The notes under the pieces are model-generated. The model saw only the letters and a list, made by a program, of their open reading frames with translations, made no database searches and was not told the DNA's origin. Made by a program: the position numbers and the translations under genes. This document shows, one piece after another, positions 4,869 through 43,844 of a stretch of 64,000 nt of DNA. Origin of the DNA: an uncultured Muribaculaceae bacterium. GTDB lineage: Bacteria > Bacillota_I > Bacilli_A > RF39 > UBA660. The stretch is taken from NCBI GenBank assembly GCA_964370545.1, contig CAYJJQ010000001.1, positions 25,605-89,604 of the forward strand. Reading direction: 5' to 3'. Within the stretch, counting starts at the first letter, position 1; each line of letters begins with the position of its first letter.

Positions 4869-4872
4869 TCCT

Positions 4873-5313
4873 TCATTTTTTCTTTTTATAATTAGTTTTT
4901 TTTGTTTTTTTTCTTTTCTTTTTAGTACTTTTCTTTTTGTTATTGGAAGTATTTTTATTTTTATTAGAAGAATTTGTTGTTTCTGGTTTAGCATTAGTAT
5001 TTTTCTTTTTCGTAACAGATGATTTTTGTATACCTTTTTTTACACTAACTGCTTTTTTCTTCGCAGGCTTTTTCAATTTAAATTTAACTAGATATACATT
5101 TATGATATCAGCTATATTCTTTTTCTTTTTAATAGATTTCTTTTTAACGTTTATTGCTTTAGTTTCTTTAGTAACAACTTTTTCTTTTTTATTTATAGTT
5201 TCTTTGTTACCCGGTTTAAATACCATGAATAAAATAAGTGAAATAAATGTTAACAAATAAATTAATATAAGTGATATAAATATCCAATCAATTGTATCTA
5301 ATGTTTTGTTCAT
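4873..5313 (-). CDS. hypothetical membrane-anchored, extremely lysine-rich low-complexity protein
   Basis: GGAGA RBS then ATG gives MNKTLDTIDW... (the track ORF begins 12 nt upstream at a TTG). One TM helix is followed by a K/T/N-rich tail. The coding strand carries two A8 homopolymer runs (plus-strand T8 at 4896-4903 and 4905-4912). Confidence 0.4.
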   Translation of the reverse strand: MNKTLDTIDWIFISLILIYLLTFISLILFMVFKPGNKETINKKEKVVTKETKAINVKKKSIKKKKNIADIINVYLVKFKLKKPAKKKAVSVKKGIQKSSVTKKKNTNAKPETTNSSNKNKNTSNNKKKSTKKKRKKTKKTNYKKKK

Positions 5314-5458
5314 AATAATCTCCAAGATTATTATATTATAAACTTTTTGAAAAAACTAGTAGTTACTTTACACTTTTGATATTTATTAACAATAATTGTT
5401 AAACATAATTTAAATAAAAATGATATAATGATAGTGAGTAACTATACAAGGAGGTAAA

Positions 5459-7174
5459 ATGAAAAAAATATTATATATAATTTCTACATTAATATGTTTT
5501 TTTATGTTTGCTTCTAATGTATCAGCTGAAGTTTATAAAGTAAGAATAATTGAAAGTTATGCTAACATGAGACCGACGGCATCTACTGATGGAAAAATTG
5601 TTGAAGTATTAGAACAAGGTACTGTACATACACTTATTTCTCCTATTCCTGAAAATAATTATTATAAAATAATAAGTGCTAGTGGAAAAGAAGGCTATGT
5701 GCATGAAAATTATAGTATACAATATTTAGCGTCTGAAAATGAAACGCCTGTAACAGCATGTGAAAAATCCTTATATGAAAAAGGATTTACAGAACCATCT
5801 TATTGGCCATATTTATGCTTTTTAGAGGAAGTTCATCCAACTTGGGTATTTACACCTTTAATCACTAATTTAGATTTTGAAGATGCAGTAAAAGCTGAAA
5901 GTGCTTGTGGAACTAGTGCTACATCAAAAACAGGAAGTTACATTGACACAAGTTGCCCAAATAATTTTGCTAAAGGATGGTATCCTGCATCTCAAACAGC
6001 TGTAGCATATTACATGGATCCAAGAAATTTTTTAAATGAAAATTATATATTTCAATTCGAGCGAGTTAGTTATGATGATCGAATTGGAGATAGTTATCCT
6101 GCTATGGTTGATAATATGTTGGAAAATGCATCTTTTTATACATATCATAAAGATAAAGGTTTAAACTTATCAACAGTTATTAATGATGTAGGAAAAAATG
6201 AATCTATAAAAACCAGTCCTGTATTTATAGCAGCAAGAATGTTGCAAGAACTAGGTTCCTCAACTACCTTGTTTTCATTATATAGTGGTGTATACACAGA
6301 TGATGATTATGGTGATAAATATGTAGGCTATTTTAATTTTTATAACTGGGGAGTATCAGATACTTGTGTAGATGCTTATGGAACTGCATATTGCGGTCTT
6401 AGCACTGCTATGAGATATGAATGGAATACTGCTGAAAAAGCAATACTAGGTGGAGTCAATTCTATCGCTATCAATTATATTAACGCAAACCAAGATACAT
6501 TATATTTACAAAAATATAATGTAATGCCTGAGCTTCCAAATGAATTATATGCTCATCAGTATATGACTAATATTCATGCTCCATCAAGCGAAGGAAAAAT
6601 TATGTCAGGGGTCTATAATAGTGCAGGATTCTTAGATAATTCTTTTGAATTCTTTATACCTGTATATAATAATATGGGTGCTGAAATAACTAATGAAGGT
6701 AGCGGAGGCTCTGGTGATGAAGATGATGATCTTACTACGCTTGATATAAATACAATTATTACTAATTCTGGATATCTTAGAGATAATGGTTATTTAACGA
6801 AAATAGCTATAGGAAGTGATATTGCTAATATTATTTCTAATATAGAAAGTGCTGCAGGTAAGGGAAATGTTAGTGCCACTGATGTAGATGGAAATATAAA
6901 AACTGAAGGTATAGCGAAAACTGGAGATAAAATAACTGTGAAAAATACAACCGAAAGCATTACCATAACAATTATAATTTATGGTGATACATCAGGAGAT
7001 GGTTTAGTTAACGCACTTGATTTATTACAAGTTCAAAAACAAATATTAGGTTCATATAATTTAACTGGTATTTATGCAGAAGCAGGGGATACTTCTAAAG
7101 AAGGTAAGATTGATGCTTTAGATTTATTACAAATACAAAAACAAATATTAGGTTCATATACAATTATTCAATAA
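5459..7174 (+). CDS. secreted peptidoglycan hydrolase: SH3b domain + GH73-like glucosaminidase region + C-terminal type I dockerin
   Basis: Strong RBS AGGAGG and a signal peptide. SH3b-like N-terminus (YKVRIIESYANMRP...GYVHENY). Central region resembles mannosyl-glycoprotein endo-beta-N-acetylglucosaminidase (SPVFIAARMLQELGSS). C-terminus has two dockerin Ca-binding repeats: GDTSGDGLVNALDLLQVQKQILG and GDTSKEGKIDALDLLQIQKQILG. Confidence 0.55.
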   Translation: MKKILYIISTLICFFMFASNVSAEVYKVRIIESYANMRPTASTDGKIVEVLEQGTVHTLISPIPENNYYKIISASGKEGYVHENYSIQYLASENETPVTACEKSLYEKGFTEPSYWPYLCFLEEVHPTWVFTPLITNLDFEDAVKAESACGTSATSKTGSYIDTSCPNNFAKGWYPASQTAVAYYMDPRNFLNENYIFQFERVSYDDRIGDSYPAMVDNMLENASFYTYHKDKGLNLSTVINDVGKNESIKTSPVFIAARMLQELGSSTTLFSLYSGVYTDDDYGDKYVGYFNFYNWGVSDTCVDAYGTAYCGLSTAMRYEWNTAEKAILGGVNSIAINYINANQDTLYLQKYNVMPELPNELYAHQYMTNIHAPSSEGKIMSGVYNSAGFLDNSFEFFIPVYNNMGAEITNEGSGGSGDEDDDLTTLDINTIITNSGYLRDNGYLTKIAIGSDIANIISNIESAAGKGNVSATDVDGNIKTEGIAKTGDKITVKNTTESITITIIIYGDTSGDGLVNALDLLQVQKQILGSYNLTGIYAEAGDTSKEGKIDALDLLQIQKQILGSYTIIQ

Positions 7175-7185
7175 AAAGGAGTAAC

Positions 7186-8511
7186 ATGAAAAAAATAAAA
7201 TTAATATTATTAATAGCAATTAGTATTATTTTGATACCATATGAAGTAAATGCGGCTACTGCATCAATTTCTGTGTCATCTTCTAGCACTATTGCTCTTG
7301 GAAATACTGTAACAGTAACAGTTAAACTTTCAAGTTCAACTAAAATAGGATCTTGGGAAATGCTTCTTAACTATGATAGTAGTTATTTAAAATTAACTAG
7401 TGCTACGAGTGAAGAAAAAGGAGTTAAAATGGCCTCAGTATCTCCGACGGGAGTTACTTCTAAAACCTATACATTTAAGTTTAAAACTTTAAAAACAGGT
7501 TCTACTAAAATAAGTGTACCTAGTTATTTAGCATATGAATTTGAAGGTTTAACAAAGATGACTGTATCTTCAGGTTCTAAAACAATAACAATCAAAACTC
7601 AAGCTGATATTGAAGCAAGTTATTCAAAGGATAATGATTTAAAAGCTTTTAGTGTTGAGGGATATACTTTAAATCAAGAATTTAATAAAGATACTTTAGA
7701 ATATTCAGTAGATGTACCTGAGGGAACAGAAAAAGTAAATATTATAGCTACAAAAAATCATTCTCAAGCAACAGTATCAGGATCTGGAGAAGTTGAGGTA
7801 TCGCCTGGAGCTAATGTATTTGAAATATTAGTAAGAGCACAAAATGGTAGTGAACAAATATATAAATTAACTGTTAATGTAATTGATCAAAATCCAATTA
7901 ACGTAAAAGTAGATAATGTTAATTATACAGTAGTTAAATTAAGAGAAAGTTTAACTATGCCAGTTACATTTACAGAAACAACGGTTACTATTAATGAGTT
8001 TGAAATACCAGCATTTTATAATGAAAAATTAAAATATACGCTAGTAGGTTTAAAAGATGAATCCGGTAATATTTCATTACATATTTATGATCAAGAAAAA
8101 AAATCTTATGAATTATATAATGAAATATTATTTAATGGAATTTCACTTTTAGTAAGTGAACCCAAAGGTGAAATACCAAACGGATATACTAAGTATACTG
8201 AAACAATATTAGAAAATGAATTAACGGTATATAAAATATCAAAAGATTCTAGAACAGCATTAATTTATGGAACTAATGTGTTAACAGGAGAAGAAGGATA
8301 TTATATTATAGATACTAAAGATAATAGTATAACTATTTATGATGATGAATATATAGTAGCATTAGAAGAAAAAAATGAATTATTTATGTATATTATACTA
8401 GGATTTTCTGGAATATTATTTATACTATTTATAATTATTATTAAATTATTAAGCTCTAAGAAAAATTCTAAAAAGAAAAAAAGAGTTAAAGCTGATGAAA
8501 TTAACTATTAA
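7186..8511 (+). CDS. membrane-anchored cohesin-domain protein with a cadherin-like beta-sandwich domain
   Basis: Signal peptide. The N-terminal ~130 aa match the type I cohesin pattern (ISVSSSSTIALGNTVTVTVKLSSSTKIGSWEMLLNYDSSYLKLTS). A cadherin-like domain follows (DLKAFSVEGYTLNQEFNKDTLEYSV). C-terminal TM helix plus KKNSKKKKR stop-transfer. Confidence 0.5.
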   Translation: MKKIKLILLIAISIILIPYEVNAATASISVSSSSTIALGNTVTVTVKLSSSTKIGSWEMLLNYDSSYLKLTSATSEEKGVKMASVSPTGVTSKTYTFKFKTLKTGSTKISVPSYLAYEFEGLTKMTVSSGSKTITIKTQADIEASYSKDNDLKAFSVEGYTLNQEFNKDTLEYSVDVPEGTEKVNIIATKNHSQATVSGSGEVEVSPGANVFEILVRAQNGSEQIYKLTVNVIDQNPINVKVDNVNYTVVKLRESLTMPVTFTETTVTINEFEIPAFYNEKLKYTLVGLKDESGNISLHIYDQEKKSYELYNEILFNGISLLVSEPKGEIPNGYTKYTETILENELTVYKISKDSRTALIYGTNVLTGEEGYYIIDTKDNSITIYDDEYIVALEEKNELFMYIILGFSGILFILFIIIIKLLSSKKNSKKKKRVKADEINY

Positions 8512-9586
8512 TGAAAAAATAGGACAATTATTTATAGTTGGAATTAAAGAAAAAGGGGATATTGAAAAGGTTATTAATTTAATAACTAGTTTTCATATTG
8601 GTGGAGTAATATTATATAAAACTGCTTATGATAATTATATTGAAATGATAGAATTAATAAATAAGCTAAAAACTGCTAATAAAGATAATAAGCTACCGTT
8701 GTTTATATCCATTGATCAAGAAAATGGAAGAGTAAATAGATTTCCTAAAGATATCAATATCATAAGAAATGCAGAGAGTATTGGGAAGTGTAATAATAAT
8801 ACAATAATTAATTCTGCAAGGTTAACCGCAAAATTATTAAGTGATTCGGGTATTAATATGAACTTTGCTCCCACATTAGATTTAAATAGATATAAAAATA
8901 ATAAAGTTATAGGAAATAGGTCTTATGGTAGAGATCCTGAAAAAGTAAGCTCAATAGGAAATATAATTATAAATGAGAATATTAACAATAATATATTGTC
9001 AGTAATCAAGCATTTTCCAGGACATGGTATAGTAAAAACTGATACTCATATATTTTTACCAATAATTAATAAAAGTTCATATAAAATAGTTATGCAGGAA
9101 GATATTATTCCATTTAAAAATAACATAAAAGATAAGTGTGAGGCAATAATGGTAGGGCATTTTTTAGTGCCATCTATAGCTGGGTTAACTCCAACTTCAT
9201 TATCTAAAAATTTTGTGGATAATGAAATTAGAAAAAAATATAATTTTGAAGGGTTGATAATTACAGATAGTTTATCAATGGGTAGCGTTAGATATAGATG
9301 GGGAAAGACTGGTACTGCAATTAAAGCAATTAATGTTGGAATGGATATACTTACAGTAAAATATTATAATGGTATAGAAAAAACTCTATATAAAATAAAT
9401 GACTTAGTTAATAACAATTATATAGATGAAAAGTCAATAAATAAATCAATAAAAAGGATAGCTTTTATAAAGAAGAAATATAATATAAATGATAAACAAA
9501 TAACCGGTATTTCTAATTTAGATTCAATTAATAATGAGATCAATGCATTAAACCAAGAAATTGAGAATCAAATTGACAAAATGTAA
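8495..9586 (+). CDS. glycoside hydrolase family 3 beta-N-acetylhexosaminidase (NagZ-like)
   Basis: GH3 N-terminal motifs KIGQLFIVG, KHFPGHG and DSLSMG. Overlaps the upstream gene by 17 nt. Confidence 0.65.
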   Translation: MKLTINEKIGQLFIVGIKEKGDIEKVINLITSFHIGGVILYKTAYDNYIEMIELINKLKTANKDNKLPLFISIDQENGRVNRFPKDINIIRNAESIGKCNNNTIINSARLTAKLLSDSGINMNFAPTLDLNRYKNNKVIGNRSYGRDPEKVSSIGNIIINENINNNILSVIKHFPGHGIVKTDTHIFLPIINKSSYKIVMQEDIIPFKNNIKDKCEAIMVGHFLVPSIAGLTPTSLSKNFVDNEIRKKYNFEGLIITDSLSMGSVRYRWGKTGTAIKAINVGMDILTVKYYNGIEKTLYKINDLVNNNYIDEKSINKSIKRIAFIKKKYNINDKQITGISNLDSINNEINALNQEIENQIDKM

Positions 9587-9621
9587 CAAATATGTTATAA
9601 TTCTTATATCAGGGGGATATG

Positions 9622-9795
9622 ATGATAAGATCAAAGAGGGGTTTGGTTTTAGAAAGTGTATTAGAAATAATTTTTGGATTAGCCATTATCTTGATAACTA
9701 TTCCCATTTGGAGTGAATTTCAAGACAAAGGTTATGAAGAAGTTGTGGAAAAATACGAAGACTATGGCCAAGTTGTCTTTTATGACAACAATTAA
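9622..9795 (+). CDS. 57-aa ComGC-like type IV (pseudo)pilin mini-protein, absent from the ORF track
   Basis: RBS AGGGGG 5 nt upstream. Product is MIRSKRG/LVLESVLEIIFGLAIILITIPIW..., with Gly before the cleavage site, Glu at +5 and a hydrophobic helix. The ILITIP motif matches ComGC (ILLLITIPNV). Shorter than the track's length cutoff. Confidence 0.45.
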   Translation: MIRSKRGLVLESVLEIIFGLAIILITIPIWSEFQDKGYEEVVEKYEDYGQVVFYDNN

Positions 9796-9893
9796 ATAGG
9801 AAGTGTAAACTTCCTGTTTTTTTGTCAAATAAATTGTGTATCATTACAAAATATGTTAATATTATTATGAGTAATACTATAGAAAGGATATGC

Positions 9894-11009
9894 ATGAAAA
9901 GGCTGAAAAAAAATACTATATATTTATTTTTAGGCGTAATAGCATTTACAATAACTACTATTGGTTATTCTTATGCTATCTTTTTTAGTATAGATTCAAG
10001 CACTTTAGAACAGCAAATTTCTGCTGGAGATTTACAAGTTGCATTTAATAATTCTTCTACTTCAATAACCAGAAATTCAATGCTACCTACTAGTGATGCT
10101 GATGGCCTTGCAGCAAGTTCTGCTAGTACAATATATTTACAAAATAATGGCTCTACCGATTCAACTGCTTTTTTTACTGTAAAGTATGACTATGAATCTT
10201 TTACTTCAGATGCAGATTATACTGCTGATAGTATGCTAATACCATTAGAATTTTTAAGAGCTGCAGTATTTGTATATGATGATGTAGCAGGTCAAATGGT
10301 GCAAGCTAGTGATGTGTTTACCTTATCTGAATTACCTGTATATACTGTAGATACTTCAAATTATTATAATAATGCATACAGATTATATTTTGCAAATATA
10401 GAAAAATCAACATCTGGAAATAATGCTCAAACTTATTCAATTAAAGTTTGGCTTGATGAAAATGCACCAGAATATATAAGAGATTACAAATTATATTTAA
10501 ACGTAAATGTAATAGCACAAGTTAAAGATTCAACTAGTAATTATAATTTAAGTGGCACACTTAATGTAAATAGCTCTCCTGTAGCAAATGCTACTATAAG
10601 TTTAATGAATGGTGCATTAAAAGCTACGACTGATGCAAATGGTAATTATACCTTTAATGGAATACCAGAAGCATTATATACACTAGATATTACTACATCT
10701 ACCACTAAATATGAAACAACTTTCAAATTAGAAGAAGGGGATGAACTAAAAAATAGTACGTATGTGAATACTCATACTGTTAATGGTAATACTACATTTA
10801 GTAGTTTAGCGTATACATATGGAACCTCACTTCATAAATTAAAAGAAATTAATAATATATTTGATAATACTAATGAAATTGTTTTAACTGATGGTCAGGT
10901 ATTAACATTGCCTAAAGTATACATTATCACAGGTGGTAATAATTTAGATATAAATGTAAATATTGATGTTGATAATGAAGGTGTTATCAACTTGAGTTTA
11001 GGAGGTTAG
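9894..11009 (+). CDS. secreted TasA/camelysin-like protein with SipW-cognate signal peptide plus a carboxypeptidase-regulatory-like (CarbopepD_reg) domain
   Basis: Internal ATG at 9894 with AAAGGA RBS gives MKRLKKNTIYLFLGVIAFTITTIGYSYAIFFSIDSS, which is a SipW-type signal (GxxxAxF). NGNYTFNGIPEALYTLD is a beta-sandwich motif. The N-domain is paralogous to the two following genes. Confidence 0.5.
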   Translation: MKRLKKNTIYLFLGVIAFTITTIGYSYAIFFSIDSSTLEQQISAGDLQVAFNNSSTSITRNSMLPTSDADGLAASSASTIYLQNNGSTDSTAFFTVKYDYESFTSDADYTADSMLIPLEFLRAAVFVYDDVAGQMVQASDVFTLSELPVYTVDTSNYYNNAYRLYFANIEKSTSGNNAQTYSIKVWLDENAPEYIRDYKLYLNVNVIAQVKDSTSNYNLSGTLNVNSSPVANATISLMNGALKATTDANGNYTFNGIPEALYTLDITTSTTKYETTFKLEEGDELKNSTYVNTHTVNGNTTFSSLAYTYGTSLHKLKEINNIFDNTNEIVLTDGQVLTLPKVYIITGGNNLDINVNIDVDNEGVINLSLGG

Positions 11010-11012
11010 TAT

Positions 11013-11639
11013 ATGAGGCAAAGAAGAATGTACGTTATACCTACAATTTTACTAGTCATTATGATGCTATGTACAGCAACATTTACATATGCATACTTTA
11101 CAGCACCGAGCTCAGAGTCGTATAGTGAATATGACATAACATCTACTAAAACTGGTTTTGCTTATGCAGAATCTGGATCAGAAATAGATTTACTTGTATC
11201 TGGAGATGTAATGCAAGAACCATTACAGAATAATAATGTAGCTGCAGCAACAGCTGTAAATGATGATCCGATTACAGTAACACTAAATACTTCAGTAAAT
11301 GGAGGAACTCTAACTTGTACTTATGATATTTATTATATACCGGATACTCCCTTTATGAATAGTATAGAAAATACAACAAATGAAAAAGAATTTACAATAA
11401 AAGGTGTTTCTGATAAAGGTTCATTTGCAACTGAAATAAATTTAGGAAATGTAACTGAAAAAATTATGTTAGCTGAAAATGTAAATATAGCGTTAAGTGG
11501 AGTAAGCAAAGTATTAGTACAATCATGGACTTTTACAGCAAGCTTTTACAACCAAACTTTTGTCCAAGATGATAATGCGGGAAAAGAATTTGGAGGTAGA
11601 ATTGTTTTAGAAGATTTAGATTGTGAAAATACTTTCTAA
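11013..11639 (+). CDS. TasA/camelysin-family secreted protein (SipW-cognate signal peptide)
   Basis: RBS GGAGG. N-terminus MRQRRMYVIPTILLVIMMLCTATFTYAYFTAPS matches the TasA/CalY GGGTFAFF[ST]D pattern. 208 aa, similar in size to CalY. Paralog of the next gene (conserved TCTYDIYY and WTFTASFYN...DNAGKEFGG motifs). Confidence 0.55.
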   Translation: MRQRRMYVIPTILLVIMMLCTATFTYAYFTAPSSESYSEYDITSTKTGFAYAESGSEIDLLVSGDVMQEPLQNNNVAAATAVNDDPITVTLNTSVNGGTLTCTYDIYYIPDTPFMNSIENTTNEKEFTIKGVSDKGSFATEINLGNVTEKIMLAENVNIALSGVSKVLVQSWTFTASFYNQTFVQDDNAGKEFGGRIVLEDLDCENTF

Positions 11640-11710
11640 AATGACAAAAAAAGACTTGAAAAAAAATAATTTATTTGTTACTATGTATATATAGTAGAGA
11701 AGGAGATAAC

Positions 11711-12358
11711 ATGGAAAGAAAACAAACATTATTGTTAACAGTAATAGCAGTAGCTACTTTACTAGTGGCAGTTGTGGGAGCAACGTTCGCGTTCTTCACG
11801 GCTTCAGGAACAGGATCTGCTGATAGTGAGGTAACAGTTACTACTAGTTCAATAGATACAGTTAATACGACTGCTTCTAACTTAACTTTACAAGTAGGAT
11901 TAACAGATATGCTTTTAGCTAATGGTAGAGATGATTATTCTGCTAGAAAACAAGCTACAAGTACTATTACAATGTCTGCTGGTACTGGAACAGGTGGAGG
12001 TACAAATACATGTACTTATGACTTATCATATACACCTAATTCAGGACAAGATTTTACTCAATCTGCAGCTAACACTGGTGGATTAAACGAGTTAACTATT
12101 TCAGCTGTTGCAACTAACCCTGGTTCAGGAGTAAGTAGTGATAATGCTGTAACAGAATTTTCACTTGATGGCATTACTACAGAGCAAACACTAATCGATG
12201 GTGGAACATTTGCTGTTAGTGGTGTAAGTAATACTGATGTTTTAACTTGGACATTTACTGTAACATTTTATAACTTAGCAGTTGATCAAAGTGATAATGC
12301 TGGTGCGACATTTGGTGGAACACTATCATTTAAAAACGTTACTTGCGTAAACAGTTAA
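11711..12358 (+). CDS. TasA/camelysin-family secreted protein (SipW-cognate signal peptide), paralog of the previous gene
   Basis: AGGAGA RBS and ATG 11711 give MERKQTLLLTVIAVATLLVAVVGATFAFFTASG. The C-terminal motifs TCTYDLSY and WTFTVTFYN...DNAGATFGG are shared with 11013..11639. Confidence 0.55.
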   Translation: MERKQTLLLTVIAVATLLVAVVGATFAFFTASGTGSADSEVTVTTSSIDTVNTTASNLTLQVGLTDMLLANGRDDYSARKQATSTITMSAGTGTGGGTNTCTYDLSYTPNSGQDFTQSAANTGGLNELTISAVATNPGSGVSSDNAVTEFSLDGITTEQTLIDGGTFAVSGVSNTDVLTWTFTVTFYNLAVDQSDNAGATFGGTLSFKNVTCVNS

Positions 12359-19926: not shown

Positions 19927-20364
19927 ATGAATAAAACAACTTCTTCAAATTGCATAAATGATATTTTAAATGTTATTTTAGTATTACAAGAAAATGCATG
20001 TCCTGAAAATTGCTTAGATACATGTGATAGACCTGTTCTAGGCGGAGGGCCAAACTGTTTAGCTTGTAATACAAGACCAGTAATGTTATATACATGTTGT
20101 GGAAATGGTGTTCCTTGGAGTATGCCAACAAGTAAAGATTCAATTCAAAATTGTGAAGGTGCTACTGTTACAGATAACTGTTCAACTGTATTTAGACTTG
20201 AAAAACTTGATTGTAACTGTGCTACATTTAGAGTACTAATTGCAAATCCAGATACTACTAGTTTATATCCATACGTAGGAACAAATTCTTTCTTTACAAT
20301 GGATACAGAATGTTTATGTTCCCTAAGATGTTTAAATGATACATACGTTGAATGTATATTCTAA
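19927..20364 (+). CDS. CotY/CotZ/ExsY-like cysteine-rich spore coat / exosporium protein
   Basis: 145 aa with 17 Cys. VFRLEKLDCNCATFRVLIANPD matches the CotY/CotZ core (FFRVEKL.DCCATL.IL.P). Confidence 0.55.
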   Translation: MNKTTSSNCINDILNVILVLQENACPENCLDTCDRPVLGGGPNCLACNTRPVMLYTCCGNGVPWSMPTSKDSIQNCEGATVTDNCSTVFRLEKLDCNCATFRVLIANPDTTSLYPYVGTNSFFTMDTECLCSLRCLNDTYVECIF

Positions 20365-20400: not shown

Positions 20401-20427
20401 ATGCTATAATAACAATAGTAGGTGGCT

Positions 20428-23400
20428 ATGAAAAAACTTAAGGAAATATTTAATAAAAATAAAATATTAGTAATCGTTATGGCAGTTTCAATTGTTCTTA
20501 TAAGTGGAGTGTCTTTTGCATACTTTGCTGGTTTGATTGGCGCTCCGGCTATAACTGATTTAGATGTGACAAGTCAAAAGGGAAATACTATAGTATTTAC
20601 CCCAGGAACTGCCATTAATTTATATGCTACAGAAGATAACTTTGGACAAACACATACTAGTTTAAGTGGACAGACTATTTCAACTGCTGAATATACATCT
20701 TCTAAAACTGAATTAAATCCTGAAAAATATAATGTTTATTTTGTTATAAATGTAAATGATTTTGAATATACAACTGCATCCGAGGAAACAGAAATACTTT
20801 TAAAAGTAACTAATCCAGAAGGTGTAGAAGTAACTAGCATTACTGGATTTACTCACGATACAGTTACGGATAATGTTTCAGGAGATACATTATCAGGTTT
20901 TGATGTAACTACATTTATGGGTATAGTGCCTATAGCAATAGATTATGAAATAGATTCAATAAATAAGATTAAAACTACTCAACAGTGGAAAGTAGAGCTT
21001 ACTTTTGTTAACCTTGCTACTAAACAAAATGATAATACTAAAAAGACTTTTGAAGGTAAATTAATTTTGCAACAGGGTCCATATGAACCAACACTAGCAG
21101 AATCTATTATATTTGATAATTATGATAATGATGATTTTATATATCATTCAGATAAAAACGAAGACTCAGCAGGAGATAATAGTTTTAGATTCTCAGGTGC
21201 TAACCCTGATAACTATGTTACATTTAATGATGAATCATGGAGAATAATAGGTATCTTTGATGATAAATTAAAACTAATAAGAGAAACTCCATTAGATACA
21301 CTTATGGCATTTGATACAGGTAACTCTAATGACTTTGCAACATCTGATATAAATACTTATTTAAATACTACTTTTTATAATGCCCTTAATTCAGATGCTA
21401 AAAATTTAACGGTATCATCAAAACTTAATATAGGCCCTATATCTACTAATACGGGAGGAGAATATCATAAAACTCCAGGTGTAATAGCTAGAAAAGAAAG
21501 TTTTTTAAAAACATCTAGTTCATACAAAGTTGGTTTAATGAATGCAAGTGATTATTTATTTGCAGCATCAGAAACATATCATACTTTAAATAACTATGAT
21601 GCTACTGATACTAATAACGATTATGCAGATAATGCAAATATGATAGCTACTAATTGGATGTATATATTTGATACATATACAGCATCAGATTTCGAGTGGA
21701 CAGTAACACCAGCAACAGATGGTAATAGTTTAATGCAAATAAGAGCAGTAGGGAACACTAATTCTAACTATGCAACTAATAATGGATTAGCAGCTAGACC
21801 AACTGTTTATATTACAGGTGATGCCAGATTATCAATTGGTACTGGAACATCTGCAGATTCATATATTCTAAGTCTTCCATTGCAAGGTGCCTCTAAACAC
21901 CTAGTAGAAAATCATGACGCAGGTGAAGGATTATACCAACATACAGCAGATCTAGCTAACGGAGCAGGAGATAATAACTATAGATACTCAGGACCTGATT
22001 CGCTAGTAAAAAACTATGTAACATTTAATGATGAAATGTGGAGAATAATAGGTATCTTTGATGGTAAATTAAAACTAATAAAAGAAACATCAATAGGAAC
22101 ATATGAGTTTGATCCAGGAAATGATAACTCATGGGCCGATGATGGTGGAGGAGTAGAAGGAAATCAACTCCTAAATAACTATTATTTTAATAGTACAGTA
22201 GCCCCAAATCTCTTAGCAGATTGTGGCGGCTCTGGTAGAGGAAGTTGTGATTTCACATCAACGGGACTAGATGCAACTGCAAGAGCAATGGCAGAAACAT
22301 CAACATGGTACTTAGGAGCTCCTGATACAAATAATCAAACAGCAAATGCATTTTATAAAGAAGAAAGAGGAAGTGCAACAACAGATGGAACACATATAAC
22401 AACAGAGGCAAATATAGGATTATTATATATGAGTGATTATGGATATGCAGCATCAAGTAATGCATGGACAACAAACCTAGTTCGTTATGATACAAACTCA
22501 ATACCTGCAAATAACTGGATGTTTAGTGGATTATATGAGTGGTCAATATCGCCTAATTTGTCTGGCTCTAGCAGCGTGTTGGGTGTAAGCAGCAGCGGTG
22601 ATGCGAACAACTACTATGCCAGAGGTGGGTCTGCGTGGCGCCCAACCTTATACCTGAAATCAAATGTAGAAATCATAGGAGGATCAGGAACTGAAAGTGA
22701 TCCGTTTAAAATAGGTTTAGATGCTAATAAATACTTAATAGATAGTCATGGAGCAGAAGAAGGGCTTTACCAGCATACAGCAGATTTAACAAATGGAGCA
22801 GGAGATAATAATTATAGATATTCAGGACCTGATTCATTAGTAAAAAACTATGTAACATTTAATGATGAAATGTGGAGAATAATAGGAGTTTTTGATGGAA
22901 ATGTAAAACTAATAAAAGAAACATCAATAGGAACATATGAATTTGATCCAGGAGATGATAACTCATGGGCCGATGATGGTGGAGGAGCAGAAGGAAATCA
23001 ACTACTCAATAACTATTATTTTAATAGTGCAGTAGCGCCAAATTTGTTAGCAGATTGTGGTAATACAAGTAGAGGAAGTTGCGACTTCACATCAACAGGA
23101 CTAGACGCAACAGCAAGATTAATGGTAGAAACATCAACATGGTACTTAGGGGCTCCTGATACATATAATCAAACAGCAAATGCATTTTATAATGACGAAA
23201 GAGGAAGCGTGACATCTACAGGAACCCATATAACAACAGAGGCAAATATAGGATTAATGTATGTAAGTGATTATGGATATGCAGCCTCAAGTAATGCATG
23301 GACAACAAATTTAATTGATTATAATACTAACTCAATACTAGCAAGTAACTGGATGTGTAGTGGAGTTTTCGAGTGGTCAATATCGCCTTATTTGTCTCGC

Positions 23401-23556
23401 TCTAACTTCGTGTGGTATGTTTACGACAACGGTGATGCGGACAGCTACTACGCCAGCTATGGGAGTGCGTGGCGCCCAACCTTATACCTGAAGGCCGAAA
23501 CGAAGATTGTAGGAGGAACGGGAACTGAAAGTGATCCGTTCCAGTTAGGACTATAA
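20428..23556 (+). CDS. large secreted protein: SipW-cognate signal + TasA-like N-domain + three ~270-aa repeat domains (last two near-identical)
   Basis: N-terminus MKKLKEIFNKNKILVIVMAVSIVLISGVSFAYFAGLIGAP is a SipW-type signal. Residues ~190-215 (QWKVELTFVNLATKQNDNTKKTFEGKLIL) are paralogous to the C-terminal motif of the small TasA-like proteins. Repeats: A ~21130-21900, B 21901-22735, C 22736-23556. B and C end in GC-rich patches. The start may be GTG 20422 or ATG 20428. Confidence 0.6.
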   Translation: MKKLKEIFNKNKILVIVMAVSIVLISGVSFAYFAGLIGAPAITDLDVTSQKGNTIVFTPGTAINLYATEDNFGQTHTSLSGQTISTAEYTSSKTELNPEKYNVYFVINVNDFEYTTASEETEILLKVTNPEGVEVTSITGFTHDTVTDNVSGDTLSGFDVTTFMGIVPIAIDYEIDSINKIKTTQQWKVELTFVNLATKQNDNTKKTFEGKLILQQGPYEPTLAESIIFDNYDNDDFIYHSDKNEDSAGDNSFRFSGANPDNYVTFNDESWRIIGIFDDKLKLIRETPLDTLMAFDTGNSNDFATSDINTYLNTTFYNALNSDAKNLTVSSKLNIGPISTNTGGEYHKTPGVIARKESFLKTSSSYKVGLMNASDYLFAASETYHTLNNYDATDTNNDYADNANMIATNWMYIFDTYTASDFEWTVTPATDGNSLMQIRAVGNTNSNYATNNGLAARPTVYITGDARLSIGTGTSADSYILSLPLQGASKHLVENHDAGEGLYQHTADLANGAGDNNYRYSGPDSLVKNYVTFNDEMWRIIGIFDGKLKLIKETSIGTYEFDPGNDNSWADDGGGVEGNQLLNNYYFNSTVAPNLLADCGGSGRGSCDFTSTGLDATARAMAETSTWYLGAPDTNNQTANAFYKEERGSATTDGTHITTEANIGLLYMSDYGYAASSNAWTTNLVRYDTNSIPANNWMFSGLYEWSISPNLSGSSSVLGVSSSGDANNYYARGGSAWRPTLYLKSNVEIIGGSGTESDPFKIGLDANKYLIDSHGAEEGLYQHTADLTNGAGDNNYRYSGPDSLVKNYVTFNDEMWRIIGVFDGNVKLIKETSIGTYEFDPGDDNSWADDGGGAEGNQLLNNYYFNSAVAPNLLADCGNTSRGSCDFTSTGLDATARLMVETSTWYLGAPDTYNQTANAFYNDERGSVTSTGTHITTEANIGLMYVSDYGYAASSNAWTTNLIDYNTNSILASNWMCSGVFEWSISPYLSRSNFVWYVYDNGDADSYYASYGSAWRPTLYLKAETKIVGGTGTESDPFQLGL
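21901..23556 (+). repeat. intragenic tandem direct repeat, 2 x ~835 bp (~90% identical)
   Basis: 21901-22735 and 22736-23556 encode ENHDAGEGLYQHTADL...SAWRPTLYLK twice. The differences cluster in a ~63-nt patch near each repeat end. Confidence 0.85.
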
Positions 23557-23649: not shown

Positions 23650-24033
23650 ATGAATAGTAAAGGATTTACATTAATAGAACTACTTGCTGTGATAGTTGTT
23701 CTTGCTATAGTTGGTACTCTATCAATAGTTATATATAGCGGGTTTAGTGATTCTATTAAAGAAAAAGAATATGAAACATTAATTAATTTATATAAATCAT
23801 CTATAAAAGTGTATGTTGAGGATAATGATTATGATAATGTAACTATTGTTCTTCAAGAACTTATTGATACTGATTATGTAAGTGCTCCGGCTGATGGAAT
23901 AATAATTAATCCAATCAATGAAAGTTATAAACTTAATTGTTTAAAGTTTAATGTAATTAAGGAAAATAATGAGTATATAGTTTCTTATGATGAAACAAGT
24001 ACTAATGTTTTAATAGAAGATAAATGTAATTAA
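23650..24033 (+). CDS. type IV pilin / ComGC-like pseudopilin
   Basis: RBS AAAGGAG. Product is MNSKGFTLIELLAVIVVLAIVGTL..., a canonical class III prepilin leader with Gly before the cleavage site, Phe at +1 and Glu at +5. Confidence 0.75.
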   Translation: MNSKGFTLIELLAVIVVLAIVGTLSIVIYSGFSDSIKEKEYETLINLYKSSIKVYVEDNDYDNVTIVLQELIDTDYVSAPADGIIINPINESYKLNCLKFNVIKENNEYIVSYDETSTNVLIEDKCN

Positions 24034-31755: not shown

Positions 31756-32553
31756 CTATTTAACTTTAAGTAAATATAACGAAACAGAGGGAGTATTATT
31801 AAATCTTATAGGTAAACTTTCTACTCCTAATCCGTTAGATACGTAAATGTTTTCGTAGTTGCCAAAAGTATATTTTTTAGCATTTTCTTTTGTAAATATA
31901 GGACTCATTAAATAAGGTTTTATTAACCCTCCTAAAGAGTGTCCGGCAAAATATATACTAGTATTATTATTTATATTATCAATTAAATCAGGTTCGTGAA
32001 TGAGCGTAATATTCATAGCAGGTTTAATATCTTCTTCTATAGCGTATGAATTAGTTATATCAGTTGTAGTAGTAAGACCAGTAATAGAAATTGGTGTTAT
32101 ATCTTTATAAAATAACAACTGTGTTTTATTATCAAGTAATATAAAATCGCCTTCATCCATAATAAATTTATAATTATCAATATTCTTAAGATCGTTATCT
32201 CCGTAAATAGAATATTTATATAAATTAGCATTAATTCCTTTTAAAAAATTAATTACTACATCTTTATCTTTAACAGAAATTTCATAGTTATCATCTATTA
32301 AATCTCCTGTAAAAAATACTATGTCAGGTTCTAATAAATTAATTTCAGTTTGTATTTTTTCTAAGTTATCCATATTAAAATTAGTATTAATTAGTAAATC
32401 TGAAAAGTGTAATATAGTCAGACCATCAAAAGATTCTGGCATAGAAGTATCTATAGTAAATTTATTAACTTCAAAACCATTTATAGCTATATATCTAGCG
32501 TATAAAAATATTAAAACTAATATTAATATAATTGCAAATAATATTTTTCTCAT
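31756..32553 (-). CDS. calcineurin-like metallophosphoesterase with N-terminal membrane anchor
   Basis: LTILHFSDLL (GDxHG-like D-x-H region), FFTGDLIDD (GDxxD motif), GHSLGG. Confidence 0.55.
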   Translation of the reverse strand: MRKILFAIILILVLIFLYARYIAINGFEVNKFTIDTSMPESFDGLTILHFSDLLINTNFNMDNLEKIQTEINLLEPDIVFFTGDLIDDNYEISVKDKDVVINFLKGINANLYKYSIYGDNDLKNIDNYKFIMDEGDFILLDNKTQLLFYKDITPISITGLTTTTDITNSYAIEEDIKPAMNITLIHEPDLIDNINNNTSIYFAGHSLGGLIKPYLMSPIFTKENAKKYTFGNYENIYVSNGLGVESLPIRFNNTPSVSLYLLKVK

Positions 32554-33176
32554 TAGACAGCTCCCATAGAAAATAATAGTGTTAAAGTAAGTGAGTTATG
32601 AAATATATGCATTATTATAGGTACATAAATATTATTTGTTTTATAGTGAGCATATGCAAATGCGGCACCAAGACCTGCATAAGGAATTATAAAAATAATA
32701 TCATTTCCAATTACATGTAAGTAACCAAATAAAAATGCGCTAATACCAATATATAAATATTTATTACTAAAAGATTTTCTAATACCTAATCTAAAAATTA
32801 ATTCTTCAGTAATAGGTCCAATTATAGCCATAGTAAGTATAGCGGTAAGCCCAAAATCACTAAGAGCCGTTCTATTTAATTCTTCATTTTCAGATATAGT
32901 ATTAAATATAGAATATAAAAAGTTGTTAGTTACTATCACAAAGATATAACCACATAACCAATATAAAAATATATCCTTAAAGTAATCTTTTTTAAAGTTT
33001 TGAAAATCTTTTTTAAAATCTTTTATGAATATAAATATAAATACTAAAGAAGTAATTAAACTAGATAAAAATAAAGTTAATCCCCCATCAAAAAATTCAC
33101 TTAATATTTCATTAGTGATTATTGTTAATATAAAATATAGTATTATATATAAAATAAATTTATAGTATTTTTTCAT
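32553..33176 (-). CDS. CPBP-family (CAAX protease / Abi) intramembrane metalloprotease
   Basis: Motifs ITEELIFRLGI (EExxxR), FLFGYLHV (FxxxH) and IIMHIFHN (HxxxN/D) in a polytopic membrane protein. Confidence 0.6.
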   Translation of the reverse strand: MKKYYKFILYIILYFILTIITNEILSEFFDGGLTLFLSSLITSLVFIFIFIKDFKKDFQNFKKDYFKDIFLYWLCGYIFVIVTNNFLYSIFNTISENEELNRTALSDFGLTAILTMAIIGPITEELIFRLGIRKSFSNKYLYIGISAFLFGYLHVIGNDIIFIIPYAGLGAAFAYAHYKTNNIYVPIIMHIFHNSLTLTLLFSMGAV

Positions 33177-33297: not shown

Positions 33298-34035
33298 ATG
33301 AAGAAAAAAATTATATTATTTATGGCACTTTTATGTATGCCGATTTATGCTAATGCATCCACTTGTTCAACAGAAGAACAACTTACTTTAAGAAATGGAG
33401 CTAGCTTAATTACAGCGGCTTATGAAGAGTCAGAAAGAGAAGTTGATCCATCAACGTATATTCCTCCAGGAAATTTAACTGAAGAGGAAAAAGAAAATTA
33501 TGTTGAGATGGAAACATTTTTTAATATTAATATATTAAACATAACTACTGATTATTATGTTGAAATTACTAATAATCAAAATAATGAAGTTATTTTGGTT
33601 AGAGCAAATGATACAGAAGATGGTAAATATACATTTGAACATAATAATTTAAATACTGTTACAACTTATACCATGTCTGTGTATTCATCTAATGATACTG
33701 GTTGTCCAGATGAAAGATTATCAATTGTAAGAGTTACTACTCCAATGATTAATCCGTTTGCTTCATATGATGTATGTTCTATATATCCTGATGAAAGTGT
33801 TTGTCAAAAATATGTTACTACTCCAGGTTTTGATAGCACAATGTTTTATAACGCTATTAATGGATTAAAAGCTGAAAATGTGGAGAATCCAGAAGATGAT
33901 GACGATGGTGTAATAGCTGAAACAACAGATTTTATTAAAGATTATTATTTATATTTTATTATAGGGGCAGTAATAATTGCTGCAGGGGTTATAGTATTTG
34001 TGATACTAAAAAAGAAAAGAGGTAAGAAAAAATGA
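33298..34035 (+). CDS. secreted surface protein with C-terminal TM anchor; first gene of the Tad-like operon
   Basis: Signal peptide MKKKIILFMALLCMPIYANAS. C-terminal TM plus KKKRGKKK. Overlaps the next gene by 4 nt. Confidence 0.4.
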   Translation: MKKKIILFMALLCMPIYANASTCSTEEQLTLRNGASLITAAYEESEREVDPSTYIPPGNLTEEEKENYVEMETFFNINILNITTDYYVEITNNQNNEVILVRANDTEDGKYTFEHNNLNTVTTYTMSVYSSNDTGCPDERLSIVRVTTPMINPFASYDVCSIYPDESVCQKYVTTPGFDSTMFYNAINGLKAENVENPEDDDDGVIAETTDFIKDYYLYFIIGAVIIAAGVIVFVILKKKRGKKK

Positions 34036-37000: not shown

Positions 37001-37235
37001 AAATAATTCACTAAAATGTATTGATTCTGGAAGTTATGAAAACGTAATGTGTTATAGTACATTCTTTGATGATTACTTAGAACATTCAACATATAATACA
37101 TTATTTGTATTTGGTAATGACAGAGATGATATTGGAACATACTTTCAATTATATACAGGCGCTTCTATACCAGGAGGATCTACTGGAATTGGTGGACCAT
37201 CTTGGAAACTTAATGAGGAGGTGGAGTTAGGATGA
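34032..37235 (+). CDS. large (1067 aa) secreted Cys-rich protein, possible adhesin or pilus-associated protein
   Basis: Signal peptide. More than 40 Cys. No recognised catalytic motif. Stop overlaps the next gene by 4 nt, suggesting translational coupling into the Tad-like genes. Confidence 0.4.
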   Translation: MKKISYLIVFVLSIFIFSNVNAETFNVTHKDLKGPSGLYLGDMDDSSYNKTFYITVYNANYLGTNYSAFCLDPGLRTNTTYTTSVDLSSSSRRGLEEYDYGLKTILINGYNINNTTTTNPVTGSNLTADEFKVATTIALRSYVLAWGSFNSSSVLTEEKSAYINETALWNYNAAEDGIFDTQRFEWISNEKIGLNSSKNFDDYDSSINFNSSSEVGEGVFQVARELYYDGMDAATKYATTSQLSPDVVNTSRDVTNDDDSITRTITLTPTNFNGKTGTLTSLRVSGVSGVSYKISKNGSESTLTSFSNVTLDENTKIIITFTVTPQTGKNVDYNLNYSFNHEDLDSGRFILLGEGQANVQRLLLYVPGDTSKVFNDEFTIVGDVACKTEIDIPGACSNYDDEHFTGEINGPEDIKNCVIDGQDEAGNSYQAETCDDNIIPSDSNDYCQVYCTEDFEIEFPGMRPVNSGRYFDIGAQIVATKSCYTSEIDHDQFDEDIENAINAVIAAYNRYSEASAVVEGLNSSYIGTKKYDDKVTYFSYDAGRPEKTKQECTESIKDGETVETCRTVVTQSYIAPHCDRDGSGTHDANECGDRIVPSKSYTTYYISNGVLQSRTENTSSKTYDGDDGNTYSNGIMSSCNDRVSSCDNGSIPSSVTSAANSEKSSAKTALDNAINAYNAIINDYKLCSDWDYSYDSVPEITYSYESKYDNLLSGSDRKMDSDSSRLDVDTYECDENYENCGTLDKETVSYITCTTSGCTTTSYQLNRDAGIVKKTGDKTIDYETPEIFYQYWPSGEVFIEDEGYVNSSNTGTVSTVDGLPVEIEHNAGAYDFVFTIDGLGEYYDDCGEDGRIINESDPSGTVLEKNETAFEGEYVCQYLVNCPECEFDVTYIPDPDECTNCLFTAGYLQAHYRPTSVGSLTANDREMGWNWNRNDGTFLGEKAGDTLDDIINNGDSVYLGTPLLTVNLTADLAADIRMYNDREEKNGGYKNNSLKCIDSGSYENVMCYSTFFDDYLEHSTYNTLFVFGNDRDDIGTYFQLYTGASIPGGSTGIGGPSWKLNEEVELG

Positions 37236-37642
37236 GTAATGCGTATTGGGGATACTGGTTAGTATTACTTGGTGTATTTATTGTAGTTGTATTATTATTA
37301 ATACAAAACGTAACTACAGCTAACGTACAAAATGCTTCACTTATTAAAGAAATATCTGAAGCAGCAATGATTGATTCAGTAGATTATGCATATTATCGTG
37401 ATTACGGTGAAATAAAAATTAATGCTGAAAAATTTGAAGAAACATTTACAAGAAGAATGGCAGAAATAGTTACTGGTGGAACGACTTATAAAATTGAATT
37501 TCATAGAATTTATGAGTCTCCTCCAGCTATTGCATTAGATGTATCTAGTAGATCTAGTACATTTAATATATTTGGTGATGAAACAACTTTTGATTTAACT
37601 GATAGAGTAGAAGCTATTCTTGAAGGAAGTATAAAAGGATAA
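37232..37642 (+). CDS. small single-TM protein (TadE/RcpC-like accessory candidate)
   Basis: RBS GAGGAGG. N-terminal TM WLVLLGVFIVVVLLLI then a ~110-aa soluble domain. Confidence 0.3.
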   Translation: MSNAYWGYWLVLLGVFIVVVLLLIQNVTTANVQNASLIKEISEAAMIDSVDYAYYRDYGEIKINAEKFEETFTRRMAEIVTGGTTYKIEFHRIYESPPAIALDVSSRSSTFNIFGDETTFDLTDRVEAILEGSIKG

Positions 37643-37653
37643 AAGGAGGATAA

Positions 37654-38445: not shown

Positions 38446-38482
38446 AATAAAAGAATAAAAGAATAAAAAAGGTGGTGAACGT

Positions 38483-39571: not shown

Positions 39572-39586
39572 GAAGGGAGAATATTT

Positions 39587-41280: not shown

Positions 41281-41362
41281 CTTTACACTTATTTTTAAAA
41301 AAAGTTGATATTTAATAAAAAACAAGATATAATAACAATATATACTAGAGGAGGAATTTTAA

Positions 41363-41626: not shown

Positions 41627-41643
41627 AAAAAGGAATGATTTAA

Positions 41644-41871: not shown

Positions 41872-41875
41872 TTAG

Positions 41876-42786: not shown

Positions 42787-42797
42787 GGAGTGAAAAA

Positions 42798-43790: not shown

Positions 43791-43844
43791 TTGACTATTA
43801 TATAAAACTTAGATAAAATATAAATATAAAGAAGGAGAGAAAAT

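Follow-up and report, generated by a model that had tools for sequence, protein, structure and literature searches.

A dockerin-bearing GH73 glucosaminidase and a membrane-anchored cohesin encoded side by side in uncultured gut Bacilli

Domain architecture of the two encoded proteins

The DNA considered here is a 64,000-nucleotide (64-kb) stretch of contig CAYJJQ010000001.1 (assembly GCA_964370545.1, positions 25,605 to 89,604 of the forward strand), referred to throughout as the window. At positions 5459..8511, it carries two adjacent genes on the plus strand. Gene 1 encodes a predicted peptidoglycan hydrolase with a C-terminal dockerin (protein 1), and gene 2 encodes a single-pass membrane protein with an N-terminal cohesin (protein 2). 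An earlier note, made from the sequence alone, had read the pair as a device for tethering an autolysin to the cell surface outside a cellulosome context. The window is AT-rich (G+C ~26%) and was scanned in parts. Domains were assigned from Pfam, NCBIfam, family profiles compared with the PDB, AlphaFold2 (AF2) models and Foldseek searches with those models, and the family profile of the enzyme and the conservation of its catalytic residues and cysteines derive from its 120 closest full-length homologues (43–50% identity). The features of the two genes are as follows.

5459..7174, plus strand: gene 1, secreted SH3b-GH73-X-dockerin N-acetylglucosaminidase, 571 amino acids (aa); ATG start, with the ribosome-binding site (RBS) AAGGAGG just 5′ of the ATG
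5459..5527, plus strand: signal peptide of gene 1, aa 1–23 (MKKILYIISTLICFFMFASNVSA, then E; cleavage …SNVSA/E), of the Sec/signal peptidase I type, from reading of the sequence; model helix 2–16
5534..5734, plus strand: SH3b (bacterial SH3) wall-binding domain, aa 26–92, from profile and Foldseek
5741..6688, plus strand: GH73 catalytic region with a conserved N-terminal extension, aa 95–410; Glu264 codon at 6248–6250; H366-Q367-Y368 motif
6743..6973, plus strand: small α/β module (X) just before the dockerin, aa 429–505; AF2 elements from helix 430–436 to strand 500–505, predicted local distance difference test (pLDDT) score ~80–94
6980..7171, plus strand: type I dockerin, aa 508–571, from Pfam, PDB profile and Foldseek
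7186..8511, plus strand: gene 2, single-pass membrane protein with an N-terminal cohesin, 441 aa; ATG start, RBS AAAGGAG in the 11-nt gap
7186..7254, plus strand: signal peptide of gene 2, aa 1–23 (…PYEVNA/A), from the sequence; within the family, A23 does not vary and the VxA motif is kept
7255..7599, plus strand: cohesin module, aa 24–138, from Pfam and Foldseek
7627..7884, plus strand: cadherin-like β-sandwich domain (PF12733), aa 148–233; Pfam 36.8 bits against a cut-off of 24.2, aa 156–231
7888..8343, plus strand: two further all-β domains (stalk), aa 235–386; AF2 strands within 239–384, pLDDT 84–94
8377..8508, plus strand: transmembrane helix (~aa 398–424) and Lys-rich cytoplasmic tail (aa 425–441), from the sequence; model helix 388–426

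The earlier description of protein 1 as a 571-residue fusion of an SH3b domain, a GH73-like region and a C-terminal type I dockerin was borne out by Pfam, NCBIfam, the PDB profiles and the AF2 and Foldseek analyses, and the limits given for its open reading frame (ORF) were right. Because its Sec-type signal peptide has no lipobox, protein 1 is expected to be exported as a soluble protein, and anchoring as a lipoprotein is ruled out. The earlier note had named four Pfam families as a check. Dockerin_1 and Cohesin scored above their cut-offs, SH3_3 fell just short of its own on protein 1 (24.1 bits against 27, aa 34–85), and Glucosaminidase (PF01832) had no match on protein 1 at E<=0.1. The SH3b assignment is supported by a match of the family profile to PDB entry 2krs (1e-4) and by the SH3b fold of the AF2 model, for which Foldseek matched 2krs (template-modelling score, TMt, 0.70), 2kt8 and 9ovi (TMt 0.68–0.81 overall). 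Most homologues of protein 1 are annotated with the corresponding PF08239.

Despite the silence of PF01832, sequence and model together indicate that the GH73 assignment is solid and that the catalytic glutamate is intact. The NCBIfam SagB model matches aa 155–389 (6e-13), and the profile of the 120 homologues matches AtlE (4pi7, 1e-16), SagB (6u0o, 1e-15), Acp of Clostridium perfringens (5wqw, 1e-14) and Atl (6fxo, 1e-13) in the PDB. The AF2 model of protein 1 (mean pLDDT 88.1) contains the lysozyme-like α/β fold of GH73. Its best Foldseek match is chain 6u0o_B, which is SagB in the SagB–SpdC crystal structure (8e-12), and further matches of the GH73 region are AtlE (TMt 0.70–0.73), Atl and C. 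perfringens Acp. Residue Glu264, present in every one of the 120 homologues, falls on the catalytic-Glu motif of AtlE in the alignment, and residues H366, Q367 and Y368, which are at least 90% conserved, align with the HQY motif of AtlE and SagB. Protein 1 is thus predicted to be a GH73 endo-β-N-acetylglucosaminidase that cuts the bond between N-acetylglucosamine and N-acetylmuramic acid in peptidoglycan (GlcNAc-β-1,4-MurNAc). Module X, at aa 429–505, had no Pfam or PDB sequence match.

All 120 homologues retain six cysteines (C101, C120, C150, C166, C303 and C312), which lie in the GH73 region and the extension N-terminal to it; no solved GH73 relative was noted to share them. As the enzyme is exported by an anaerobe, their invariance may reflect either three structural disulfides or a metal site. 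Short, unannotated ‘Bacteriophage sp.’ contigs of human faecal origin (H1–H7; MT837716.1 and others) carry ORFs that share 29–40% identity with the same part of the protein (GH73 core and Cys-containing extension, aa 90–408). None of these ORFs has a dockerin, which indicates that the catalytic module circulates more widely than the dockerin fusion. The enzyme also has a weak PHROG match to phrog_759, a phage tail-associated hydrolase family (4e-7). A prophage or endolysin origin of gene 1 was rejected: no phage genes surround the locus, the PHROG matches are weak, and the phage-collection matches are confined to the GH73 core.

For the 441-residue protein 2, the earlier reading of a cohesin, a cadherin-like domain and a C-terminal membrane anchor was confirmed (30.0 and 36.8 bits for the two domains; helix 388–426 and a Lys-rich tail). 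It had passed over the two further β domains at aa 235–386, which had no Pfam or PDB sequence match. Pfam Cohesin (PF00963) matches aa 28–117 with 30.0 bits against a cut-off of 24.1, which upholds a cohesin within 7186..8511. The AF2 model (pLDDT 88.3) finds its best PDB matches in the cohesin of C. perfringens GH84C (2w1n, 5e-9; 2jh2, TMt 0.69), followed by type II cohesins (listed were 1qzn, 5k39 and 2y3n). An above-threshold PF00963 match and a model whose top PDB matches are cohesins identify the module as a cohesin, a family with a nine-stranded β jelly-roll fold. The nearest cohesin structures, those of C. perfringens and of type II, are 10–18% identical to it, and the PDB profile matches are weak (0.005–0.4; 2y3n and 1tyj).

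The model of protein 2 is all-β up to residue 386 and continues as one long helix, 388–426. The C-terminal hydrophobic run reads LFMYIILGFSGILFILFIIIIKLL and is followed by SSKKNSKKKKRVK. By the positive-inside rule, the cohesin and the three other β domains are placed outside the cell and rooted C-terminally in the membrane. The basic tail is Lys-rich in all homologues, with varying length and sequence. Neither an SLH (surface-layer homology) domain nor an LPXTG motif was found, and the anchor is the C-terminal transmembrane helix with its basic tail. Sequence and model place the cohesin farthest from the membrane, at the tip of the stalk. When extended, the four β-sandwich domains could span roughly 10–15 nm, an estimate from typical domain sizes.

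The cadherin-like family PF12733 also occurs in the representative library in giant proteins of 1,000–7,663 aa (P0269–P0417), in which it is repeated in tandem 10–53 times. In a whole-protein profile search with the cohesin-protein family, these giants outscore true orthologues. The whole-library profile search placed the full-length orthologues of protein 2 (~420–620 aa) in many 50%-identity clusters and returned no new architecture.

Co-inheritance of the pair and constraint on the dockerin

A scan of one genome per GTDB species yielded 336 stretches with a relative of the cohesin protein, and the best 80 of the 336 were analysed as loci. In 78 of these 80 loci, each from a different GTDB species, the dockerin-GH73 gene lies directly 5′ of the cohesin gene on the same strand. 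The other two begin at the cohesin gene and are uninformative, so that the arrangement holds in 78/78 informative loci. The stop of gene 1 is 6–20 nt from the start of gene 2 in 67 of the 72 loci in which the distance could be measured. In the window, the two genes are 11 nt apart on the same strand, with no terminator-like site between them.

The dockerins and cohesins of these genomes were counted with family-specific hidden Markov models (HMMs) across the 64-kb window and ~8 kb on each side in the related genomes (80 loci, 1.07 Mb in total). Exactly one dockerin and one cohesin were found in the window and in each related locus, and a generic two-EF-hand pattern, applied to the window, recovered the same single dockerin. 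The ‘minimal pair’ of the earlier note therefore stands only for the window and ~1.07 Mb of related loci. In Cellulosilyticum lentocellum, the sole dockerin gene and the sole cohesin gene are likewise adjacent in one operon, and their products have been shown experimentally to form a heterodimer (PMC13487519). This precedent lends support to the view that the neighbouring genes encode partners.

Each of the two proteins has thousands of relatives in the databases, many of them on shared contigs. The best 80 loci are labelled almost entirely as uncultured gut Bacilli or ‘Tenericutes’ metagenome-assembled genomes, from humans, rabbits, chickens, mice and ruminants, with labels such as Candidatus Onthocola, Candidatus Caccenecus and Clostridium sp. 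CAG:609. The named genera among the relatives are classed at NCBI as Bacilli incertae sedis. A few labels (Muribaculaceae, Agathobacter) probably stem from mistakes in submission or binning.

The dockerin is recognised by Dockerin_1 (PF00404) with 46.2 bits against a cut-off of 22.9 (aa 508–564), and PF00404 is present in 120/120 of the closest enzyme homologues. Both calcium-binding strings quoted in the earlier note occur in protein 1, namely DTSGDGLVNALD (aa 510–521, nt 6986–7021) and DTSKEGKIDALD (aa 544–555, nt 7088–7123), and each loop is followed by a helix, LDLLQ(V/I)QKQILG. Two repeats of ~22 residues, each an EF-hand-like loop (D-x-[DNS]-x-[DN]-G-x-[IV]-[ND]-x-x-D) with its helix, identify a dockerin of type I. 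The match to PDB chain 2ccl_B is close both by profile (7e-9) and by Foldseek (TMt 0.90, root-mean-square deviation 0.9 Å over 59 columns).

No segment of the enzyme is more conserved than the dockerin, which has a mean pairwise identity of 0.73 (0.83 and 0.78 for its two repeats) against 0.58 for the GH73 core and 0.41 for SH3b. Within one protein, the repeats also resemble each other closely, with a mean identity of 85%. Positions 10, 11, 17, 18, 21 and 22 of each repeat are taken to be the cohesin contacts of solved type I complexes, and both repeats carry the same residues there (A-L … Q-K … L-G). Furthermore, the repeats vary in parallel at positions 9, 10, 11, 14, 15, 17, 21 and 23, where a deviation in one is nearly always matched in the other. 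Both repeats were changed together in 6/6 cases at position 9, 3/3 at position 11, 2/2 at position 17, 4/4 at position 21 and 17/18 at position 23. Examples are SIID/TIVD (locus L004), NAQD/NAQD and NSLD…K/NSLD…K, and independent changes are few. This pattern is the signature that would be expected of selection for two equivalent binding faces, that is, a dual binding mode. As parallel variation and conservation are hard to explain otherwise, a protein partner for the dockerin is favoured.

Some lineages have divergent dockerin faces: SIID/TIVD in L004, and D(V/I)SGDG…NSLDLLK in L061, L075 and L077. In L061, the second calcium loop is degenerate. The cohesins of these four lineages visibly deviate too (for example, LGAWNFILDYD and MGSWQFLVNYD), and the four may be natural specificity variants.

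Genomic neighbourhood of the operon

The features that border the two genes are listed below; promoter calls reflect a consensus match alone.

4844–4878: bidirectional terminator-like hairpin closing the upstream genes (consensus scan)
4873..5325, minus strand: divergent small membrane protein, 150 aa, with a short N-terminus, one transmembrane helix and a long, very Lys-rich tail
5400..5429, plus strand: promoter-like site TAAACA-18-TATAAT with a TG extension, 5′ of the operon (consensus scan, 10/12 matches)
8495..9586, plus strand: GH3 NagZ-like β-N-acetylhexosaminidase, no signal peptide (Pfam Glyco_hydro_3, 2e-59; NCBIfam β-N-acetylhexosaminidase, 3e-50, below cut-off)
9794..9819, plus strand: terminator-like hairpin with T-run, 3′ of both the GH3 gene and a consensus promoter (9573–9601)

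The start of the GH3 gene overlaps the end of gene 2, and it is therefore read as co-transcribed here. As a third member of the system, the NagZ-like enzyme was ruled out, since it lies 3′ of the cohesin gene in only 1/80 related loci (L035). The 150-residue protein on the other side (4873..5325) matched no Pfam or PHROG family. Homologous minus-strand ORFs occur a median of 140 bp 5′ of the dockerin-GH73 gene in 40 related loci. The protein may be an accessory part of the locus and, given that its tail is similar to the basic one of protein 2, perhaps an unrecognised third component.

The remaining conserved neighbours belong to the cell envelope. Upstream, ~35 loci have an LtaS-like sulfatase, a 200-residue protein and an LCP ligase. 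Downstream, a GT4 protein (TagO/WecA-like, recognised by its N-terminal sequence) occurs in 29/71 loci, and the window holds a GT4 paralogue matching Pfam Glycos_transf_4 at 57125..58165. Elsewhere, the window encodes RodA/FtsW, a Mur ligase, the GT4 protein, MnaA and an O-antigen-ligase-like protein, from which it follows that the organism makes a wall. No cellulase or carbohydrate-binding module (CBM) was found in the scanned parts of the window, in agreement with the earlier observation that no cellulases are nearby, and the window and the flanks of the 80 related loci likewise yielded no GH5, GH9 or GH48 enzyme. Nothing in the scanned parts points to plant-fibre degradation, and the context is that of the cell envelope.

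Further features of the window lie outside this operon. Directly after it, at 9822..12358 (plus strand), are three tandem ORFs for secreted proteins, with the N-terminal motifs …YSYAIFFS…, …FTYAYFTA… and …GATFAFFTAS…, which resemble SipW-dependent signal peptides of the TasA/camelysin type. The first of the three has CarboxypepD_reg/SdrD_B-like and weak LysM matches, and the group could be a fibre or matrix locus. A CotZ-like spore-coat protein is encoded at 19927..20364 (plus strand), followed by a 1044-residue protein with a weak DUF6273 match (20422..23556, plus strand) and a 127-residue protein with a type IV pilin N-methylation motif (23650..24033, plus strand). A CAAX-protease/Rce1-like (Abi) membrane protein, of the family to which SpdC belongs, is encoded at 32553..33176 (minus strand), 25 kb from the GH73 gene and unlinked to it; it would be of interest should the enzyme have a second partner. 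The region 33298..44195 (plus strand) has the appearance of a Tad/Flp-like pilus or secretion cluster, with a 1067-residue protein without family, DUF5411, an RcpC/CpaB-like protein, a T2SSE/CpaF-type ATPase, a T4SS_pilin-like protein and several unassigned membrane-sized ORFs.

A proposed cohesin–dockerin tether, its alternatives and its precedents

It is proposed that the locus is a dedicated two-gene module in which a 1:1 cohesin–dockerin tether holds a peptidoglycan hydrolase on the producer's own surface, and this reading is considered probable. The tethering suggested by the earlier note is favoured by comparative evidence, namely the 78/78 adjacency, the single dockerin and cohesin per locus, the conservation of the dockerin and the envelope context. 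The analysis shows directly which domains the two proteins contain, that the catalytic residues are intact, what the membrane topology is, that the genes form an operon and are strictly co-inherited, and that the dockerin is constrained; physical binding of the pair, its calcium dependence, its dual mode and its physiological role are predictions.

In the proposed mechanism, the exported glucosaminidase would dock through its dockerin onto the cohesin at the tip of the membrane-rooted stalk, in a 1:1, Ca2+-dependent complex. Since both repeats share the conserved helix face (A-L-D-L-L-Q-V-Q-K-x-I-L-G), two symmetric binding orientations are probably possible. Docking would keep the glucosaminidase from diffusing away, so that it would work at a set distance from the membrane in the cell's own wall, where its cutting of glycan strands may serve wall maturation, wall turnover or the separation of daughter cells. 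The SH3b domain would add affinity for the substrate or wall, and the basic tail of protein 2 would serve as anchor and topology signal only. The cytoplasmic NagZ-like GH3 enzyme, co-transcribed here, could process recycled fragments, a link that is not conserved.

Several points weigh against this proposal. The Pfam score of the cohesin is modest, at 30 bits. The closest cohesins are non-cellulosomal or of type II and the dockerin is type I-like, so that cognate specificity is unreadable from type labels. Position 5 of calcium loop 2 is Glu here and Asp in 96% of orthologues. Inter-protein covariation, calculated as normalised mutual information with average-product correction (APC) between dockerin columns and partner columns in 77 orthologous pairs, is enriched only 1.25–1.4-fold in the cohesin relative to the other ectodomain domains, a signal that was set aside as evidence in either direction, the dockerin being too conserved and the sample (n=77) too small. 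Own-wall remodelling, as opposed to attack on other cells, has gene context as its sole basis. Finally, further dockerin proteins may be encoded elsewhere in the genome, as the one-to-one count covers the window and ~1.07 Mb of related loci.

The last point leaves some room for a cohesin that acts as a general surface-display anchor for several dockerin proteins encoded elsewhere in the genome, with the GH73 enzyme merely the cargo encoded next to it. Non-cellulolytic gut Firmicutes can indeed be dockerin-rich and cohesin-poor: Ruminococcus bromii has 26 dockerins and 4 cohesins (PMC4611034), and Ruminococcus albus has 58–90 dockerins and 0–1 cohesin (PMC4081043). The single cohesin of C. lentocellum had extra candidate partners (PMC13487519), and the search reached 64 kb of the present genome and ~8 kb per side in its relatives. 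Such an anchor is nevertheless judged improbable, in that exactly one dockerin gene is tightly coupled to the cohesin gene in the 78/78 informative loci, no second dockerin appeared in the 1.07 Mb of flanks from 80 genomes, and protein 2 has a single cohesin.

An offensive role, in which a surface-displayed lysin (a ‘lyticome’) would attack neighbouring gut bacteria for competition or nutrient release, is distinctly improbable. Dockerin-bearing lysozymes and D-Ala-D-Ala carboxypeptidases of rumen and gut cellulosome systems have been so interpreted, according to the accounts in PMC6487960 and in PMC6403190, which cites Morais 2016. The GH73 core of protein 1 (aa 90–408) also has its relatives on faecal ‘Bacteriophage sp.’ contigs and its weak match to phrog_759 (4e-7). 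Set against these, housekeeping envelope genes (LtaS, LCP, GT4) surround the locus in most species, the gene is single-copy and conserved, like a core gene, over hundreds of species, and the nearest solved relatives are SagB and AtlE, which are housekeeping glucosaminidases of Staphylococcus aureus. Moreover, with some four domains and its root in the membrane, the stalk would be unlikely to extend past the producer's own wall.

Least probable of all is that the two modules do not bind each other, their adjacency reflecting co-regulation of two envelope proteins, with the dockerin serving as a Ca2+-dependent folding or wall-binding module, or binding another partner, and the cohesin-like domain being an Ig-like stalk domain. 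The weak covariation (1.25–1.4-fold, n=77) and the modest cohesin score are compatible with this, and many non-cellulosomal dockerin- and cohesin-like modules are not known to have a partner. It is countered by the extreme conservation and parallel variation of the two helix faces of the dockerin, which would be difficult to account for if it had no protein partner, by the location next door (6–20 nt away in 67/72 loci) of the sole gene for a protein with the known partner fold, and by the proven binding of an analogous adjacent pair (PMC13487519).

A dedicated tether would belong with known systems, and the class to which it belongs is the broader one of non-cellulosomal cohesin–dockerin pairs. 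The idea that a cohesin–dockerin pair localises a peptidoglycan hydrolase has precedents. Ruminococcus bicirculans has a lone cohesin/dockerin pair with a GH73 enzyme (Wegmann et al. 2014, summarised in PMC4611034). As that summary presents it, this is the same concept in a non-cellulolytic gut Firmicute with one dockerin, one cohesin and a GH73 link; R. bicirculans belongs to the Clostridia, whereas the present organisms are uncultured Bacilli, and the likeness is one of summary description only. The view of the earlier note that such pairing is rare for autolysins is accordingly to be softened, in light of R. bicirculans and of the dockerin-bearing lysozymes and hydrolases reported from rumen and gut ruminococci in the accounts of PMC6403190 and PMC6487960. 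Those ruminococcal cellulosomal lysozymes and cell-wall hydrolases (Morais 2016 and Bensoussan 2017, as relayed in PMC6403190 and PMC6487960) similarly fuse a dockerin to a peptidoglycan-cleaving module. They are described there as GH25 lysozymes and carboxypeptidases, held in multi-cohesin scaffoldins with sortase or SLH anchoring and proposed to act on other bacteria, whereas the present system has a GH73 enzyme, a transmembrane-helix anchor and no scaffoldin or cellulosome. A cellulosome was ruled out, for the scanned parts of the window and the flanks of the 80 related loci, by the single cohesin, the sole dockerin on a GH73 enzyme, and the lack of a CBM, of an SLH or sortase anchor and of fibre-degrading cargo.

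The comparison with C. perfringens made in the earlier note is apt, as the closest solved cohesin is that of GH84C/NagJ (2w1n, 2jh2), from the toxin complexes of that species, and the pairing is there too used outside plant-fibre degradation. In C. perfringens, the two modules link large secreted hydrolases of host glycans with one another, whereas here a two-gene operon encodes a membrane-anchored, non-catalytic stalk and a peptidoglycan hydrolase as cargo. The C. lentocellum pair ClcC/ClcD shares the arrangement: its genome has one cohesin gene and one dockerin gene, which lie side by side and are transcribed together, each with its own RBS. It differs in its cargo, a GH5 cellulase, and in its cohesin protein, which has CBM3 and X2 modules and no cell anchor; its dockerin has one intact recognition face only, whereas here both faces are conserved (PMC13487519).

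The SagB–SpdC complex of S. aureus (6u0o) offers a functional parallel for the arrangement. There, the partner holds and orients a GH73 enzyme at the membrane and determines how long the products are (bioRxiv 10.1101/2020.05.21.109470). In structure, the catalytic domain of protein 1 is closest to SagB, and in both cases a GH73 enzyme would be held at the membrane through a membrane protein, as proposed here. SagB has its own N-terminal transmembrane helix and SpdC is an eight-helix (8-TM) CAAX-protease-like protein that orients the active site, whereas protein 1 is a soluble enzyme with SH3b, a dockerin and a cleavable signal peptide, and its partner is a single-pass stalk protein. Membership of the SagB–SpdC family itself was refuted: NF052642 scored 48.6 bits against a cut-off of 425, and the partner is single-pass, not a CAAX-like (Abi/Rce1) polytopic protein.

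A bolder version of the tether, which is on balance unlikely, would make it a non-covalent functional analogue of the SagB–SpdC ‘peptidoglycan release’ complex, with the four-domain stalk as a molecular ruler for a SagB-like GH73 enzyme. Held at a fixed height, the enzyme might then trim or release nascent glycan strands across a clade of uncultured, small-genome gut Bacilli, and docking that depends on Ca2+ could switch the localisation of the autolysin on and off. If true, this would give a housekeeping, cell-biological role to a module pair otherwise known only from extracellular polysaccharide or host-glycan degradation.

Three elements of the system appear to be undescribed: the anchoring of a cohesin by a C-terminal transmembrane helix, the domain order SH3b-GH73-X-dockerin, and the strict conservation of the pair, as a two-gene operon at envelope loci, throughout a large clade of uncultured gut Bacilli. 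Cohesin–dockerin pairs have been studied almost only as cellulosome glue and as a tool of synthetic biology, and for engineering the present pair would, if the proposal is true, be naturally orthogonal and apparently dual-mode. In biological terms, a dedicated tether would make a high-affinity pair a core device of the cell envelope, kept as a dedicated 1:1 operon in every related species examined, with a transmembrane anchor in place of the known SLH or sortase routes. The plug-and-socket principle would then join transmembrane anchors, SpdC/ActH-type partners, FtsEX and wall-binding repeats on the short list of means by which peptidoglycan hydrolases, enzymes that have to be both placed and held in check, are positioned or restrained, and the pair would offer a simple, testable handle on the wall biology of abundant uncultured gut Bacilli.

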